Assembly: GCA_016202395.1 (NCBI GenBank)
Contig: JACQOV010000039.1
Coordinates: 1 to 45,931, forward strand
DNA length: 45,931 bases
Source of the DNA: Deltaproteobacteria bacterium
Lineage (GTDB): Bacteria; JACQOV01
Reading direction: 5' to 3'
In this document: positions 26,311 through 44,509 of the stretch, piece by piece
Position numbering within the stretch: the stretch's first letter is position 1
Layout of the letters: each line of letters begins with the position of its first letter
The notes under the pieces: model-generated
Seen by the model: the letters and a program-made list of their open reading frames with translations, nothing else
Told to the model about the DNA's origin: nothing
Database searches by the model: none
Position numbers and translations under genes: made by a program

Positions 26311-27051
<741 letters not shown>

Positions 27052-27070
27052 GGTTTAGGTGTAGAAAAAC

Positions 27071-27625
27071 ATGGAAGAAGTTATTCGAGAATTGCGAAGT
27101 CATATGGATCGATCCGTCGAGGCTTTTAAAAGGGACCTCGGACAGATTCGGACCGGTCGCGCCTCGATTTCTTTGTTGGATGGGGTTCGAGTCGATTATT
27201 ACGGGAATCCGACCCCTTTAAACCAATTGGCAACCCTTTCCGTTCCCGAGCCCCGTTCCATCCTTATTCAACCCTGGGATCCTTCAGTGGGGGAGTTGAT
27301 CGCAAAAGCGATTCTAACCTCGGATCTAGGATTAAACCCGACCCACGACGGAAAAATTATTCGTATAGCGATTCCTTCTCTTACCGAGGAGAGACGCAAG
27401 GAGCTTGTCAAGCGCGTCCACAAGATTGCCGAAGAGTCGCGTGTGGCCCTTCGAAACATTCGGCGGGATCTTCTCGAGAGATTAAAGAAGCGAGAAAAAG
27501 AAGAGAGTCTCTCGGAAGACGTCGTTCATCAGACGCAAGATCGAGTCCAGAAGGTGACCGACGAAGAGATGGGGAAGATTGAAAAAATTGTTGCGGCGAA
27601 AGAAAAAGAGATCCTTGAAGTTTGA
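27071..27625 (+). CDS. frr: ribosome recycling factor
   Basis: IRTGRA, VDYYG.PTPL, LTEERRKEL, RNIRR. Confidence 0.98.
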   Translation: MEEVIRELRSHMDRSVEAFKRDLGQIRTGRASISLLDGVRVDYYGNPTPLNQLATLSVPEPRSILIQPWDPSVGELIAKAILTSDLGLNPTHDGKIIRIAIPSLTEERRKELVKRVHKIAEESRVALRNIRRDLLERLKKREKEESLSEDVVHQTQDRVQKVTDEEMGKIEKIVAAKEKEILEV

Positions 27626-28331
27626 TTTGCCGCGGCATGTGGCCATCATCATGGATGGCAATGGCCGTTGGGCAAAGCGGCGCGGCTTAACCCGAGTGGA
27701 GGGGCATCGCCAAGGGGTGCAAGCGGCTCGCAAAATCGTCAATGCCGCTCGAGAAATCGGGATTCCGGTTCTAACCCTTTACACCTTTTCCAAAGAGAAT
27801 TGGAATCGGCCTCAGCAAGAGGTCCAAGCTTTGATGGGCTTGTTGGAGCACTATTTGGAGGAGGTTCACAAAGAGATTGAAGAGCACGACATCCGTGTGC
27901 AAGCGATTGGAGAGATGGAGGACCTTCCGGCCCCCGTCCAACAGTCCCTTCGGCGGTTGATCGATCGAACCCGTTCCAAAAAAGGGATGCTCGTCAATCT
28001 GGCTTTAAGCTATGGCGGACGAGCGGAGATTGTGCGCGCAGCTTCTCGTCTGCTAGAGGATTTTAAGCAAAATCGAATCTCTCCCAAAGAGATAACGCCC
28101 GATCTGTTTTCGAGCTATCTTTATACCCAAGGGCTCCCCGATCCCGACCTTTTAATCCGGACCGGCGGGGATTTTCGGATCAGCAATTTCCTTTTGTGGC
28201 AGATGGCCTACACCGAGATTGTTGTTACGCAGGTTCTTTGGCCCGATTTTCGGAAGCGACATTTTATTCGTTGTTTGCTAGACTATCAAAAGCGAGAAAG
28301 ACGATTTGGCGGGGTGCAGGAAGAAGCATGA
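27615..28331 (+). CDS. uppS: undecaprenyl diphosphate synthase (start approximate)
   Basis: HVAIIMDGNGRWA, FSKENW.RP, SYGGR, PDLLIRTGG..RISNFLLWQ. Confidence 0.97.
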   Translation: MKFDLPRHVAIIMDGNGRWAKRRGLTRVEGHRQGVQAARKIVNAAREIGIPVLTLYTFSKENWNRPQQEVQALMGLLEHYLEEVHKEIEEHDIRVQAIGEMEDLPAPVQQSLRRLIDRTRSKKGMLVNLALSYGGRAEIVRAASRLLEDFKQNRISPKEITPDLFSSYLYTQGLPDPDLLIRTGGDFRISNFLLWQMAYTEIVVTQVLWPDFRKRHFIRCLLDYQKRERRFGGVQEEA

Positions 28332-39778: not shown

Positions 39779-40807
39779 ATGACAATGGAACGAAAGTATA
39801 AAGTAGCCGTCGTTGGAGCAACAGGGGCCGTAGGGACGGAGTTGCTTCGCCTCTTAGAAGAGAGGAATTTCCCTTTAAAGGAACTCCGCCTGTTTGCCTC
39901 CGATCGCTCCAAAGGAAAACAGCTCTCTTTTAAAGGCCGAGACCTTCCGGTGGAGTCTCTGGAGGGGGCTCGGTTTGAGGGGGTCGAGATCGCTCTATTT
40001 TCGGCGGGAGCCGCTCGGAGCTTGGAGTTCGCTCCCAAGGCCACCGCGGCGGGGGCCATTGTAATCGATAATAGCTCGGCTTATCGAAACGATCCCGATG
40101 TCCCTTTAGTGGTTCCTGAGATCAACAGCGATGCGATTCAGGGGTATCTGAAGAAGGGGATTATTGCGAATCCGAACTGCACCACCGCCGTGATGCTCAT
40201 GGGATTGTATCCATTGCATCGGAAGGCCCGTGTCCGCAGGATGATCGTGACGAGCTTTCAAGCCGCCTCGGGTGCGGGGGCTGCCGCCATGGAAGAGCTT
40301 CGCCAACAAAGTGAAAGGGTCTTGAGAGGAGAGGAGGCGGAGCCTAAGATTTTTCCTCATCCGATTGCGTTTAATCTCATCCCTCATATCGATCAATTTC
40401 TTGAAACAGGGTATACTCAGGAAGAGATGAAGCTTCTTTGGGAGACCCGAAAGATTTTGGGGGATCCTGAGATTGAGGTGAATGCGACCACGGTTCGTGT
40501 TCCTGTCTTTCGAGCCCATTCCGTTTCCGTTCACGCGGAGTTTGAAAAAAAGATTACGGTGGCAGAGGCGCGCGCGCTTTTGTTAAAGGCTCCGGGCGTT
40601 CGTTTGTGGGACGATCCTTCGAAGAAAGAGTATCCTATGCCGATTTTAGCCTCCGATCGGGAGGAGTGTTATGTGGGGCGGATTCGGCAAGATCTCTTTA
40701 ATCCCAAGGCCTTAAACCTTTGGGTGGTGGGAGATCAGCTCTTGAAAGGAGCGGCGTTGAATGCGGTACAAATCGCCGAGAAATTGATTGAGGGATATTT
40801 GCAGTGA
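39779..40807 (+). CDS. asd: aspartate-semialdehyde dehydrogenase
   Basis: GATGAVG, DNSSAYR, ANPNCTT, QAASGAG, RVPV..AH, KGAALNAVQI. Confidence 0.97.
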   Translation: MTMERKYKVAVVGATGAVGTELLRLLEERNFPLKELRLFASDRSKGKQLSFKGRDLPVESLEGARFEGVEIALFSAGAARSLEFAPKATAAGAIVIDNSSAYRNDPDVPLVVPEINSDAIQGYLKKGIIANPNCTTAVMLMGLYPLHRKARVRRMIVTSFQAASGAGAAAMEELRQQSERVLRGEEAEPKIFPHPIAFNLIPHIDQFLETGYTQEEMKLLWETRKILGDPEIEVNATTVRVPVFRAHSVSVHAEFEKKITVAEARALLLKAPGVRLWDDPSKKEYPMPILASDREECYVGRIRQDLFNPKALNLWVVGDQLLKGAALNAVQIAEKLIEGYLQ

Positions 40808-42306
40808 GAAAATCTTTTCTAATTGGCGTCGTTTTTCAGATGCTGCCCGCTTTGTTATCGGCTGCGATTCTAGGTTCAGAGAGTGTGGAGGTAACAGTTA
40901 CCGACGATTCCGTTTGCACGGAAGATGTGACACTGACCTGGACTGTTTCTCCTGCAGAGATTCCAACCTCTGACACAACGCTGGATTACACGGTTCGGGT
41001 GGACGGGGACGGCAGCCTGGATTCTGGAACCGAATGTACGGGAACAAACTGTAGCGGAGAATTGGAGCTTGTTTCGGGTGATGACGAAAGCGATTCCGTT
41101 ACCACAACCATTCTCAATGCCGATTTGAGTGAAGATGCGACCTACTCCGTTTACGTTATTGTCAATGTGGAAGGGGATGAAACGGATATTGATTTTGATG
41201 TCGTCTCCGTTACCAAAGATTGCCCTCCCAGCGCCCCGTCGAGTTTGAGCGCCTCCATTGGGGACGGCCGTCTTTTTCTCTCCTGGAGTGATCCTAATAC
41301 CGATACAGCGAGTGTCAATATTTTTTATGATACGGTTTCGCATCCCGCTTCGACCGATGGGAGCGATTACGCCTCGAGTACAACGGCGAGCGGCGGATCA
41401 GCCACCGTCGAGGGACTCACGAATGGAACGACCTATTTCTTCCGGGTTTCCGTGACAGACACCGGAGGCAATATCAGTGGAATCTCCAATGAAGCGAGCG
41501 GAATTCCTGAAGAGGTGATCGGGCTCGCGGATTTGAACGATGAGTTAGGGGGCTGCGGCGTTATTCCAAGCTCTGGCTCCAGATCCAACCTTATTTTTAT
41601 TGGAGTTGTCTCTCTTCTTGGGCTTATTATATGGAGAAAGAGGCGATTGGGGCCATGGGTTCTCCTTTTAGCTTTCTTCGGTGCGATGGGAGGGACCGCT
41701 TTTTCGCGAGAACACAGCCCACGCCATTACAGTTTTGAGCTTTCTGGAGGGCCGTTCTTCCCAGAAAAAGTGGATAATTTCTCGCTCGTGTATGAGGACA
41801 AGAATCGGCCGCAGTATCGTATCGGTTTGGGATGGGAGTTTTTGCAACTCTTTGGGACATTAGAGCTTCAGGCTTTAACAGGGTATTTTCAGGCGGATGG
41901 AAAAGGGGTGACGAAAACCACATTGCAATCAACAGGGGAGGAATTTACCTTTCGAATTATTCCAGCGCAACTCTCATTAGTGTATCGAGCCGATTTCTTG
42001 GAGCGGTTTTTCTTGGTCCCCTTTGGGGAGATCGGAGGGGATTACTTTTACTGGCGCGAGGATCAGAAAGACGGATCCCAAGATCATGAAGGATTGGTGA
42101 AGGGATATCATTACGGCGCCGGAATCCAGATCCCGATGGGTTGGATGGAGCCAAAGCACGCCTACAATCTCGAGTATGATTGGGGAATTAACCAGGTTTA
42201 TCTCATTGGCAAGTACGAGATCTCAAAGGTCGACGACTTTGGGAAAATAGAGAGCTTTGATTTGAGCAGCGAAACTTGGTTTGCCGGCCTTCTGTTTACC
42301 TTCTAA
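40804..42306 (+). CDS. secreted FN3-domain protein with internal CTERM-like anchor fused to a putative outer-membrane beta-barrel
   Basis: N-terminal signal peptide; Asp/Thr/Ser-rich region; FN3 (PPSAPSSL...LSW...GLTNGTTYFFRVSVTD..GN); GGC + TM + RKRR; second signal-like segment ending AFS; amphipathic strands ending WFAGLLFTF. Confidence 0.75.
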   Translation: MRKSFLIGVVFQMLPALLSAAILGSESVEVTVTDDSVCTEDVTLTWTVSPAEIPTSDTTLDYTVRVDGDGSLDSGTECTGTNCSGELELVSGDDESDSVTTTILNADLSEDATYSVYVIVNVEGDETDIDFDVVSVTKDCPPSAPSSLSASIGDGRLFLSWSDPNTDTASVNIFYDTVSHPASTDGSDYASSTTASGGSATVEGLTNGTTYFFRVSVTDTGGNISGISNEASGIPEEVIGLADLNDELGGCGVIPSSGSRSNLIFIGVVSLLGLIIWRKRRLGPWVLLLAFFGAMGGTAFSREHSPRHYSFELSGGPFFPEKVDNFSLVYEDKNRPQYRIGLGWEFLQLFGTLELQALTGYFQADGKGVTKTTLQSTGEEFTFRIIPAQLSLVYRADFLERFFLVPFGEIGGDYFYWREDQKDGSQDHEGLVKGYHYGAGIQIPMGWMEPKHAYNLEYDWGINQVYLIGKYEISKVDDFGKIESFDLSSETWFAGLLFTF

Positions 42307-42319
42307 GACAAACGCAAGC

Positions 42320-43093
42320 ATGCGGAAAATTAAGCTCATACTGGAATACGATGGGACGGCTTACCATGGCTGGCAGCGTCAAAAAAAGGGGTTAACGATT
42401 CAACAGATCGTTGAGGGTGCGCTGCGAAAGATGATCCGTGAAAAAATTCCTGTGGTTGCCGCCAGTCGCACCGACAGCGGAGTGCATGCCTTAGGTCAGG
42501 TCCTCCATTTTTCTACAAAAAGTTCAGTTTCCCTACGGGCTTTTCGCGAAGGACTCAACCCCCTTCTTCCACCCGATATCGTGGTGCGAGAGGCCCAAGA
42601 GGTCTCTCTCCAATTTCATGCCCGTCGCGATGCCAAACGAAAACATTATCGGTACCGCATCTGGAACGCCCCCTTTCGGTCCCCTTTGCTGCGAAATTTT
42701 TCATGGCACGTGCGTGGGCCTTTGGATGTGGAGCGGATGAATCAGGCCTCCTCTTGGGTGGTGGGGGAAAAGGACTTTTCCTCTTTTCGTTCGGCGGGTT
42801 GTGCCAGTCGTCAGGGTCGTCGCAGGGTTTATCTTGCGAAGTGGAACCGTTTCGAACAGGAGATTACTTTCGATATTGAGGCCAACGCTTTTCTTCGCCA
42901 TATGGTCCGCAGCCTTGTCGGCTCCATCGTTCAAGTCGGCTTGGGTCGATGGTCTGTTGATCGCTTTCAAAGAGCTTTAGAGGCCTGCGATCGCTCCCAG
43001 GCGGCAGTGACAGCGCCCCCCCAAGGTTTGTGCCTCATCTCTGTCCGTTACACTGTCGTAGATCAGTCAAAATGTCCTTTAATGGATCAGTGA
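42320..43093 (+). CDS. truA: tRNA pseudouridine(38-40) synthase; last 12 aa derive from the IS end
   Basis: YDGTAYHGWQ.Q, SRTDSGVHA.GQ, FHAR, FLRHMVR, APPQGL.L. Confidence 0.96.
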   Translation: MRKIKLILEYDGTAYHGWQRQKKGLTIQQIVEGALRKMIREKIPVVAASRTDSGVHALGQVLHFSTKSSVSLRAFREGLNPLLPPDIVVREAQEVSLQFHARRDAKRKHYRYRIWNAPFRSPLLRNFSWHVRGPLDVERMNQASSWVVGEKDFSSFRSAGCASRQGRRRVYLAKWNRFEQEITFDIEANAFLRHMVRSLVGSIVQVGLGRWSVDRFQRALEACDRSQAAVTAPPQGLCLISVRYTVVDQSKCPLMDQ

Positions 43094-44509
43094 AAATGTC
43101 CTGATCGTATTTTTTAGGTTAATGATTTTTTCATGTCTTTGAGGTTTAAAAAAGGCTTTCATCCATGGCCTATCAAAGGAGATCGGCAGTTGATTCGTAT
43201 TGGGAGCCATCCCTTTTTTATTTTTAGGCCGCCTGTTTTTTTAATTCACTCCTTCCAATCTTGTAAGTATTCATCATCCGTGTCACGGCCTCTGGACTGA
43301 AACGGGCCACTCGTTGTTGCTGGTAATGGATTTCAATGCTACCCTCCTTGAGTTGCAGGACTTCCACTTTTCTCCCAGCGATGGAATGAAATTTCTTCGA
43401 AGGGGGAATCTGTAAAATCAATCCTTCGAAAGAAACGGTATGATCCTGGGCGACCGTCCTTGTTTCTTTGATACAAAGAACACGGGACAGTTCAAAAGCA
43501 GAAGGCGATGGCCGGAAAACAGGCGTGCTTTGTTTGGGAGGCACCGCAAACTGTTTATTAAACTCTTTTAAAAAGCGGCCTAACACCTCATGGGCTTCCT
43601 CCAGTGTTTTAGCCTGAGCCAGTCTCAGTTCCACCACAAGGCGATCTTGAAAAGTCTGCCATAACCTTTCAACGCGGCCCTTGGCTTGAGGGGAATAGGC
43701 CGGAATAATCCTGATGCCCAATTCCTCCATGGCTCTCCCAAATTGGGTCAAGGGTCCTGTATTCTTTAATTGCTCGACAATCGTGGGCTTGCGGGGAGAG
43801 AAAAAGATGGTATGCCGATCGGAATAAAGACTCAAAGGCAGTCCTTGAGATAAAAGAATGTCTTCCATCAAACCCAAATATCCCCAAGTGGTCTCCCGAG
43901 GCTCAAAACCAGCCCATACGTGACTACAGGCATCATCAATACCCCCAACCAATGTCAGCCATGGACCCCGTCCTTCCAGCCAGTCATGGGGGGAAGCATC
44001 GATTTGTACCATCTGCCCAAAGGCCTCTTTTCTTTCCCGGCGAGAACGATAACGCGGCGATCTCCTTTTCCTCTTGGCCTCCCATCCTTCTTTCACCCGA
44101 ATTCTTCGAAGGGTTGATTTAGAAACAGAGATCTTTTCTTCCCTTTTTAAAAGCTCCATCAAATGGATGTCATTGATGTCTTTGTATTTCCCACGCATCC
44201 ATGCCTTTATCCTTTCCAGGATGGACTCCTGGGTCTTCCGGTGGCTTGCTTTGCCACGATTCCCATGGATAAGACCCCGAATGCCATCATCCCGAAACCT
44301 CATTAACAAACGATTGATCTGACGAACTGTAATTCCCAAAAGCTGGCCCCCTTCCACCAACGATATCTGCCCCCATTTTATCGATTGTATGATATGGATT
44401 CTCTGCTCATCTTTCATAGTGATTTTCATCCTTTCCTCCTGTTTGAAAACAGGATTATCAGGACAAAATCACTGATCTGTTAACAGGACATTTTCATTGG
44501 TCTACCACA
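43054..44509 (-). mobile_element. insertion sequence, IS1202/ISNCY-type, 1456 bp, 17-bp target site duplication
   Basis: TGT...ACA ends; ~52-bp imperfect IRs, each with two GATCAGTGAAAATGTCCT-like units; ATCTCTGTCCGTTACAC duplicated at 43037-43053 and 44510-44526. Confidence 0.93.
43224..44429 (-). CDS. DDE transposase (HTH + rve integrase core)
   Basis: N-terminal HTH, HGNRG, QIDASPHDW, YSDRH, PQAKGRVER...TFQDRL; intact 401 aa. Confidence 0.95.
   Translation of the reverse strand: MKITMKDEQRIHIIQSIKWGQISLVEGGQLLGITVRQINRLLMRFRDDGIRGLIHGNRGKASHRKTQESILERIKAWMRGKYKDINDIHLMELLKREEKISVSKSTLRRIRVKEGWEAKRKRRSPRYRSRRERKEAFGQMVQIDASPHDWLEGRGPWLTLVGGIDDACSHVWAGFEPRETTWGYLGLMEDILLSQGLPLSLYSDRHTIFFSPRKPTIVEQLKNTGPLTQFGRAMEELGIRIIPAYSPQAKGRVERLWQTFQDRLVVELRLAQAKTLEEAHEVLGRFLKEFNKQFAVPPKQSTPVFRPSPSAFELSRVLCIKETRTVAQDHTVSFEGLILQIPPSKKFHSIAGRKVEVLQLKEGSIEIHYQQQRVARFSPEAVTRMMNTYKIGRSELKKQAA

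Follow-up and report, generated by a model that had tools for sequence, protein, structure and literature searches.

A deltaproteobacterial gene encoding a candidate polyprotein that joins an FN3 surface protein, a mid-chain sorting tag and an MXAN_2562-family outer-membrane barrel

Sorting tags of the MYXO-CTERM type, made of a Cys motif, a spacer, a transmembrane (TM) helix and a cluster of Arg residues, normally sit at the extreme C-terminus of the proteins that carry them. What, then, is the product of a gene in which such a tag lies in the middle of the chain? The question is raised by a stretch of 45,931 nucleotides (nt) from a Deltaproteobacteria bacterium (contig JACQOV010000039.1 of assembly GCA_016202395.1), referred to below as the window, where 219 residues stand C-terminal of the basic cluster of the tag in the open reading frame (ORF) 40804-42306. 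We propose that this gene is a natural fusion of the counterparts of two adjacent genes of Myxococcus xanthus, sgmI and MXAN_2562, and that signal peptidase I and a myxosortase cleave its product, a polyprotein, into a surface protein anchored by a Cys and its own beta-barrel. We infer both cleavages, and we consider this reading, taken as a whole, to be probable.

The ORF (Table 1) begins with a GTG codon that overlaps the stop codon of the gene asd (GTGA), and its last residue is a Phe. The passenger comprises an Ig-like domain and a fibronectin type III (FN3) domain. The Ig-like domain, residues 22-140, matched no Pfam family; its Cys residues C38, C78, C83 and C140 are invariant among close homologues. 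The FN3 domain is recognized by Pfam fn3 at residues 143-223 (E 7.2e-9, 36.2 bits for a cut-off of 25). Residues 278-301, located after the TM helix of the tag, look like a signal peptide, with RKRR, then WVLLLAFFGAMGG, then A-F-S, according to hydropathy rules and not to a trained predictor. The parts listed by a previous sequence-only reading of the window, among them the GGC motif (41548-41556), RKRR (41635-41646) and the terminal Phe, are all found at the positions that it gave.

The kinship with the M. xanthus pair comes from the NCBIfam models. Residues 308-500 match MXAN_2562_fam (NF040596, model type subfamily_domain) over all 208 profile positions (1-208) at E 9e-41, with 139.8 bits for a cut-off of 100 and with 140.4 bits in the whole-genome scan. 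Residues 134-278 match MXAN_2561_fam (NF045522, the SgmI equivalog model) with 47.9 bits (E 1.2e-12), and the layout of this family, an FN3 domain and then a membrane tag with a Cys (GGC, TM helix, RKRR), is present. The resemblance to MXAN_2561 and MXAN_2562 put forward by the sequence-only reading is thus fully recovered for the barrel half and only partly for the passenger half, which stays below its cut-off of 150. The MXAN_2562 family is described as encoded by a separate gene downstream of an MXAN_2561-like gene; here the two are fused in one frame.

According to the accessible part of a preprint (bioRxiv 10.64898/2026.08.28.747804), MXAN_2561 of M. xanthus is the FN3 protein SgmI, which bears a sorting tag and has been implicated in motility dependent on pili. 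Downstream of sgmI, and seemingly co-transcribed with it, MXAN_2562 encodes a predicted outer-membrane (OM) barrel, and insertions in the two genes give similar fitness profiles in development. The gene of the window shows the same order of parts, an FN3 surface protein with a Cys/TM/Arg tag and then an OM barrel of about 200 residues, and split relatives of this gene share its neighbour truA. On the other hand, the window encodes everything in one frame, with the tag and the signal peptide of the barrel both internal, and it displays one FN3 domain together with an unrelated Ig-like domain, whereas SgmI possesses two FN3 domains (10.64898/2026.08.28.747804).

The source genome (G000) being a fragmented metagenome bin of 1.9 Mb (108 contigs, 89% complete), two genes could have been fused in this single assembly by a frameshift, an assembly error or the loss of a stop codon. 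However, three homologues from other sources, P0003, P0004 and P0005 (78%, 68% and 59% identity, with 97-99% query coverage), keep the same uninterrupted layout in frames of 556, 515 and 509 amino acids (aa). Fused frames are also present in three distant genomes, as well as in Bradymonas sediminis, a species in culture (WP_111331037.1, 642 aa). Furthermore, the Logan contigs X2, X3 and X4 from three other runs, which cover positions 41451-42000, 41544-41943 and 41506-42000, are identical to the window across the junction (0 other letters, 0 gaps), and neither a stop codon nor a frameshift separates the halves in these assemblies. The three runs are not fully independent since they belong to one study, though to different samples. 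Altogether, an artefact is ruled out to the extent that sequences allow, and we give it practically no credence. The runs that contain the stretch carry the label of groundwater metagenomes.

The fused gene is not isolated. We analyzed a panel of 61 genomes, each of a different family, in which the 60 relatives of the source genome share only the domain with it. The barrel is inside a frame of about 504-594 aa in four of them, namely the source genome and three distant ones: G001 (547 aa), G024 (593 aa, with truA next) and G038 (572 aa, with asd before). In two others, it is encoded by a separate gene directly after an FN3 gene with a terminal Cys/TM/basic tag. In G018 (locus L005), the FN3 protein ends with GGVDC, a TM segment and RRRS, and its gene overlaps by 4 nt that of a 237-aa barrel having its own signal peptide, which is followed by truA; in G010 (locus L006), a 214-aa barrel comes after an FN3/Cys protein, and truA after the barrel. 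G029 yielded a weak barrel match of 19.8 bits only.

To extend this comparison, a profile made from six barrel domains (four fused and two split) was run against 1.84 billion representatives and retrieved 2705 clusters at E<=1e-3. Among the best 150 of the 2705 clusters together with P0001, P0003 and P0004, that is 153 proteins, 84 are fused (barrel starting beyond residue 150), 60 are stand-alone and nine are intermediate. Since about half of the family members examined are fused, the fusion is not a rarity of the window. Both forms that the sequence-only reading had envisaged, split and fused, therefore exist. B. sediminis illustrates how the fused proteins appear in databases: its RefSeq name is 'MXAN_2562 family outer membrane beta-barrel protein', and because such proteins are named after the barrel only, the passenger and the tag remain hidden in annotation.

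The junction is a general property of the fused proteins. Two or more hydrophobic segments precede the barrel in 76 of the 84, the last one at most 25 aa from it, and the loop between the last two segments carries a net positive charge in 76 out of 76 (median length 9 aa). Of these 76 proteins, 68 have a CFIATAA-type motif or a Cys at most 40 aa upstream. When 73 of them are aligned, the column of C251 is one of three invariant ones. The Cys/TM/basic arrangement is thus conserved in homologues, as the sequence-only reading supposed. For their part, 53 of the 59 stand-alone barrels checked start with a complete N-terminal signal peptide, and the internal segment 282-301 sits where these barrels have it.

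The anchor itself comes in several varieties. In 24 of the 84 fused proteins, as counted with a simple pattern (e.g. P0014, P0038, P0051 and P0065, and loci L002, L003 and L006), we observed another anchor, G-G-F/Y-C-F-I-A-T-A-A-Y-G-S, with a conserved helical stretch of about 60-85 aa between it and the TM helix. A third group, also of 24 of the 84, contains motifs of the S-C-Q-Q type, and the Cys is aligned in all anchor groups. Another arrangement is seen in P0120, P0136 and P0140 (361-406 aa), where a signal peptide is followed by about 150 residues of low-complexity or other sequence, with neither Cys tag nor second signal, and then by the barrel.

How often did the two forms interconvert? 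In a FastTree phylogeny of 152 barrel domains, the fused or stand-alone label requires 27 changes, at least 17 of them forced by well-supported branches, as compared with 44-49 in shuffled trials. When seven likely partial and eight atypical rows were removed, 22 changes were required, as compared with 40.4 on average and never fewer than 32 in 300 shuffles. The change count is only rough because the tree is a quick one and many of its branches are weak. Fusion or fission nevertheless clearly happened many times along this tree, with about 20 interconversions, and this repeated switching suggests that the two states behave as equivalent.

The barrel assignment is supported by its predicted structure. 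The AlphaFold2 (AF2) model of the C-terminal 199 residues, computed with an alignment of 145 family members, shows eight long strands with a mean predicted local distance difference test score (pLDDT) of 95.8 and a predicted template modelling score (pTM) of 0.88. Foldseek matched it in the PDB to Ail (3qra, E 1.8e-8), to the membrane domain of OmpA (9fzc_A, TM-score 0.64/0.73) and to OmpX, OmpW, OprG and NspA. The C-terminal part therefore models as the transmembrane beta-barrel that the sequence-only reading had seen in its amphipathic strands. With eight strands, it would be a partner, an anchor or a binding platform and not a conduit for a folded passenger, and the comparison with TraA and TraB made by that reading can only be kept as an analogy.

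The number of strands also ruled out another candidate, a barrel acting as translocator of the passenger in the manner of an autotransporter. Classical autotransporters (type Va) likewise consist of a single chain with an N-terminal signal, a passenger and a C-terminal OM barrel with an aromatic end. However, their barrels have 12 or 16 strands with a linker in the lumen, whereas here the barrel is eight-stranded and OmpA/OmpX-like, too narrow for the passenger, and an inner-membrane hairpin with two predicted cleavage sites separates passenger from barrel. No autotransporter family was matched in Pfam or NCBIfam, and the best Foldseek match to AIDA-I came at rank 34 (E 2.5e-3).

The full-length AF2 model (73-row alignment; pLDDT 88, pTM 0.73) displays two beta-sandwich domains, helices at residues 262-278 and 280-295, and the barrel from residue 309. 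Its pLDDT falls below 50 at residues 255-260 and 295-302, exactly the two places where cuts are predicted. The first strand of the barrel starts 8 residues past S301, the end of the second hydrophobic segment. As only these 8 residues separate a membrane helix from strand 1, the uncut chain would be unable to reach the outer membrane. An uncut protein bridging both membranes is ruled out for the same reason, helix 2 and strand 1 being joined without a linker.

The pattern of conservation points in the same direction. Relative to P0005, the most distant of the close homologues, identity is 78% in the FN3 domain, 82% in the linker and GGC and 65% in the barrel, and it is 22% in the spacer, 18% in the first TM helix, 28% in the basic loop, 23% in the second hydrophobic segment and 19% in the N-terminal signal peptide. 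The linker and GGC, 82-100% identical among close homologues, are the best-kept stretch of the junction. The junction retains its hydrophobicity, its charge and a small-x-small site (AFS, ALA, ALA and TEA; TALA, TALA and TEA in the homologues), and not its sequence. It therefore evolves like a signal or anchor segment that is discarded.

Enzymes that could carry out both cuts are encoded in the source genome. One protein matches the myxosortase core model Mrt_core (NF040914) with 130.2/128.2 bits for a cut-off of 100, so that a myxosortase-type protease, as the sequence-only reading would have it, is indeed present. It is the only match to PF02517 (CPBP) in the genome, and its EExxxR and HxxxN motifs are readable. 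Its gene is located on contig C62 at 27011-27775 (L008:1060-1824), between mutS and an amidase-like gene and about 20 kb from gspD. LepB (signal peptidase I, 173 bits), BamA (655 bits), Lgt (146 bits) and the type II secretin GspD (578 bits for a cut-off of 351), adjoined by a GspE-like ATPase, are also found. In the panel, Mrt_core reaches at least 97 bits in all six genomes with a strong barrel match. G049 is the only further genome with an Mrt_core protein (126.6 bits); it has no barrel match and is 97% complete in about 270 contigs, and its barrel gene may be absent, have diverged or lie in an unassembled part.

Tags of the same design also occur at chain ends in the source genome. Inspecting 27 loose candidates out of 6988 frames by eye, we recognized a Gly-Cys, spacer, TM and Arg-cluster tag with a 10-20-aa spacer at the end of at least five long frames, of 1792, 954, 649, 410 and 1836 aa (contigs C29, C42, C69, C79 and C95). 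They may form a divergent Cys-CTERM class served by the CPBP protease, which in sequence looks like an unnamed myxosortase subtype.

A parallel can be drawn with the sorting of MYXO-CTERM proteins such as TraA and MXAN_4924 by the myxosortases MrtX, MrtC and MrtP. Both have an invariant Cys with a TM helix and a basic tail on the cytoplasmic side, as well as a CPBP protease passing the core model, a type II secretion system and Lgt, which would act as described in the accessible parts of PMC11980579 and 10.1101/2023.06.07.544157. The differences are that about 220 residues follow the tag here, that the tag does not reach the hidden Markov model (HMM) TIGR03901 and that the protease belongs to no named subtype. 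The sequence-only reading had spoken of a MYXO-CTERM-type tag; the layout agrees with it (invariant Cys, TM helix, short Arg-rich tail) and the HMM does not. Since TIGR03901 is not reached, we call the tag MYXO-CTERM-like and not a member of that family.

On this basis, the following scheme can be proposed. The N-terminal signal peptide would target the chain to Sec, and both passenger domains would pass the inner membrane until helix 263-277 halts transfer and leaves RKRR in the cytoplasm. Segment 282-301 would then resume export as an internal signal peptide. Signal peptidase I would cut after A-F-S301, and the freed barrel would cross the periplasm to BAM, the machinery of beta-barrel assembly, presenting its C-terminal LLFTF. 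The two-helix hairpin would meanwhile hold the passenger in the inner membrane, where Cys251 would be modified and the myxosortase-family CPBP protease would cut. By analogy with the MYXO-CTERM model, in which lipidation is itself hypothetical (PMC11980579, accessible part), the passenger would be carried to the surface, where it probably sits with the barrel. The products would be two proteins, the same as those of the split operons, and a discarded hairpin of about 50 aa, and the ratio of the two proteins would be fixed at 1:1 because one translation yields both.

Do the two products bind each other? Mutual binding of passenger and barrel is suggested by the recurrence of the fusion. We also predicted their complex, and obtained a score of 0.58, the best of three controls reaching 0.01; the runs share at least 94% of contacts and the pLDDT of the partner is at least 80. 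The mark used is one that 58 of 80 solved complexes and 2 of 110 mismatched pairs attained, and the range up to 0.60 contains only 7 of the 80 solved complexes plus both passing mismatches. The complex prediction thus lends weak support to binding.

Several observations weigh against the processing scheme. The passenger covers only the FN3 and tag part of the SgmI profile (positions 160-301 of 304), below the cut-off given above. The genome scan returned no match to TIGR03901 at E<=10, nor did the internal tag (residues 233-285) at the same threshold; the best of the five terminal tags scored 12.9 bits for a cut-off of 20, and none of the five reached any other CTERM model. The protease remains below the subtype cut-offs for MrtP (196<250), MrtC (141<195) and MrtX (122<180), and likewise below those for MrtS, MrtZ and MrtJ. 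Lipidation of the Cys is still presented as a hypothesis, even in M. xanthus, in the accessible part of PMC11980579. The signal-peptide and TM calls come from home-made hydropathy rules and not from SignalP or DeepTMHMM, eight of the 84 fused-size proteins do not show the junction features, the survey counts are those of the best-matching clusters, and the barrel tree is a FastTree with many weak branches. Some of these points would fit a chain that is processed only partly or not at all, with the Cys left uncut, the FN3 part kept in the periplasm on an inner-membrane hairpin, and either the barrel alone released or the whole chain uncut: the tag is not C-terminal and fails TIGR03901, and the myxosortase belongs to no named subtype. 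However, the Cys is invariant in 73 fused proteins, and the linker and GGC are better kept than anything else in the junction. The genome also maintains a protease of the myxosortase core and chain-end tags built alike, six of six panel genomes with a strong barrel match have the protease as well, fused and split forms swap often, and a barrel still tied to a helix 8 residues away cannot get to the outer membrane. We thus regard partial or absent processing as unlikely.

Another explanation would be that two proteins are made from two starts, the barrel coming mainly from the in-frame TTG at 41647 and the full chain being the tolerated by-product of a lost stop codon. TTG and Shine-Dalgarno-like purines (GGAG 10 nt and GAGG 3 nt upstream) lie exactly at the second signal segment, so that some barrel could be made alone, a further point against the scheme. 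Moreover, L004 has an ATG at the equivalent place, and split forms with a 4-nt overlap, hence with coupled translation, exist. However, the purine run is forced by the Arg and Lys codons AGA AAG AGG, no ATG, GTG or TTG occurs in L002 from the basic cluster to the cleavage site, and the one candidate in L003 is a TTG within the hydrophobic core. A signal peptide begun at the TTG would also lack a basic n-region, whereas 76 fused proteins keep the complete basic loop and signal-like segment. Furthermore, the full-length chain would be made anyway since there is no stop codon, and an internal start could not replace processing. We give this explanation a small share of the probability, and retain as the likelier one the processing of a polyprotein by signal peptidase I and a myxosortase.

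Table 1. Features of the ORF 40804-42306 and its flanking genes (positions in the window)
Feature	Position	Strand	Basis or remark
asd, aspartate-semialdehyde dehydrogenase, upstream neighbour	39779..40807	+	4-nt overlap with the ORF
Whole ORF, 500 aa + stop	40804..42306	+	GTG start; 500 open codons
N-terminal signal peptide, aa 1-21 (RK, hydrophobic core, SAA)	40804..40866	+	Read from sequence; low pLDDT in full-length model; aligns with homologue signal peptides
Acidic Ig-like beta-sandwich, aa 22-140	40867..41223	+	AF2 strands 28-137
Fibronectin type III domain, aa 141-235	41224..41508	+	Pfam fn3 143-223; NF045522 134-278; AF2 strands 146-233, pLDDT about 97
GGC motif, aa 249-251	41548..41556	+	Cys251 invariant in fused proteins; predicted lipidation and myxosortase cleavage residue
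Ser/Gly-rich spacer, aa 252-262	41557..41589	+	pLDDT <50 at aa 255-260
Transmembrane helix 1, LIFIGVVSLLGLIIW, aa 263-277, predicted stop-transfer part of the sorting tag	41590..41634	+	AF2 helix 262-278
RKRR, aa 278-281, predicted cytoplasmic basic cluster (tag tail and n-region of the internal signal peptide)	41635..41646	+	
Internal signal-peptide-like segment, LGPWVLLLAFFGAMGGTAFS, aa 282-301, ends A-F-S	41647..41706	+	AF2 helix 280-295; predicted signal peptidase I cut after S301
TTG, possible internal start codon	41647..41649	+	GGAG 10 nt and GAGG 3 nt upstream, within Arg/Lys codons
MXAN_2562-family 8-stranded outer-membrane beta-barrel, aa 302-500, ends LLFTF	41707..42303	+	NF040596; AF2; Foldseek
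truA, tRNA pseudouridine synthase, downstream neighbour	42320..43093	+	Starts 14 nt past the ORF stop

The gene is flanked by asd and truA, and the same neighbours are shared elsewhere: asd lies upstream also in L004 (from G038), and truA lies downstream in L003, L005 and L006 (from G024, G018 and G010, respectively). Since they are shared by distant genomes, this neighbourhood must be old. That housekeeping neighbours are kept in genomes sharing only the domain is unusual for a gene encoding a surface protein. Further downstream, between truA and rplM, an ORF of 401 aa on the minus strand (43224-44429) gives weak helix-turn-helix and integrase-core matches below the Pfam cut-offs (rve_3, 23.8 for 26.5). 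It is probably an insertion sequence transposase, judging from these matches, inserted into an otherwise housekeeping stretch. As for the organism, its lineage is poorly sampled: the nearest named relatives of its LeuA, 66-68% identical, come from metagenome-assembled genomes labelled Deltaproteobacteria, Proteobacteria or Thermodesulfobacteriota.

We found no published description of this fused layout of passenger, tag, signal peptide and barrel; it is absent from the main text of both myxosortase papers, the supplements of which might list such proteins. The parts are known ones: the SgmI/MXAN_2562 pair, Cys-type tags and their myxosortases, Sec signal peptides and small OmpA-like barrels. 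Their arrangement differs from what is known in that a 'C-terminal' tag lies mid-chain with a second signal peptide immediately after it, and this arrangement is common among uncultured bacteria and not unique to the window.

The nearest precedent known to us is the cytochrome b/c1 polyprotein FbcH of Bradyrhizobium japonicum, where the cut of an internal signal peptide gives two mature proteins in a 1:1 ratio. FbcH differs by yielding respiratory proteins of the inner membrane, without a sorting tag, a second protease or an outer-membrane destination.

A second comparison concerns RcsF with OmpA, OmpC and OmpF, in which a lipid-anchored and surface-exposed protein is likewise paired with an OM barrel (PMC4942254, accessible part). 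Unlike the present case, RcsF and its partners are encoded by separate genes, the lipid is N-terminal and added through a lipobox, and the pairing is not a dedicated one; in the present pair, binding is predicted with a weak score.

What could be drawn from such a gene? For engineering, its layout suggests a compact design for the stoichiometric co-display of two envelope proteins. If the cuts occur as proposed, this would be a natural bacterial polyprotein, both products of which go to the outer membrane by different routes, and myxosortase recognition would rely on the Cys motif and helix and not on the end of the chain. One could go further and suppose, tentatively and with clearly less confidence than for the polyprotein itself, that Cys-type 'C-terminal' tags are internal cleavage modules for which myxosortases need no free C-terminus. 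The FN3 lipoprotein and its barrel would then form an obligate 1:1 surface complex, among the oldest and most widespread clients of myxosortases, sited at asd/truA in many deltaproteobacteria-like lineages and fused or split about 20 times without loss of function. Were this true, a tag followed by a signal peptide would be what turns one gene into a two-product envelope polyprotein. Finally, the fusion provides a Rosetta-stone link, according to which SgmI-like FN3 proteins and MXAN_2562-like barrels work together. Neither kind of protein is characterised; those of M. xanthus have effects on motility and development (bioRxiv 10.64898/2026.08.28.747804, accessible part).

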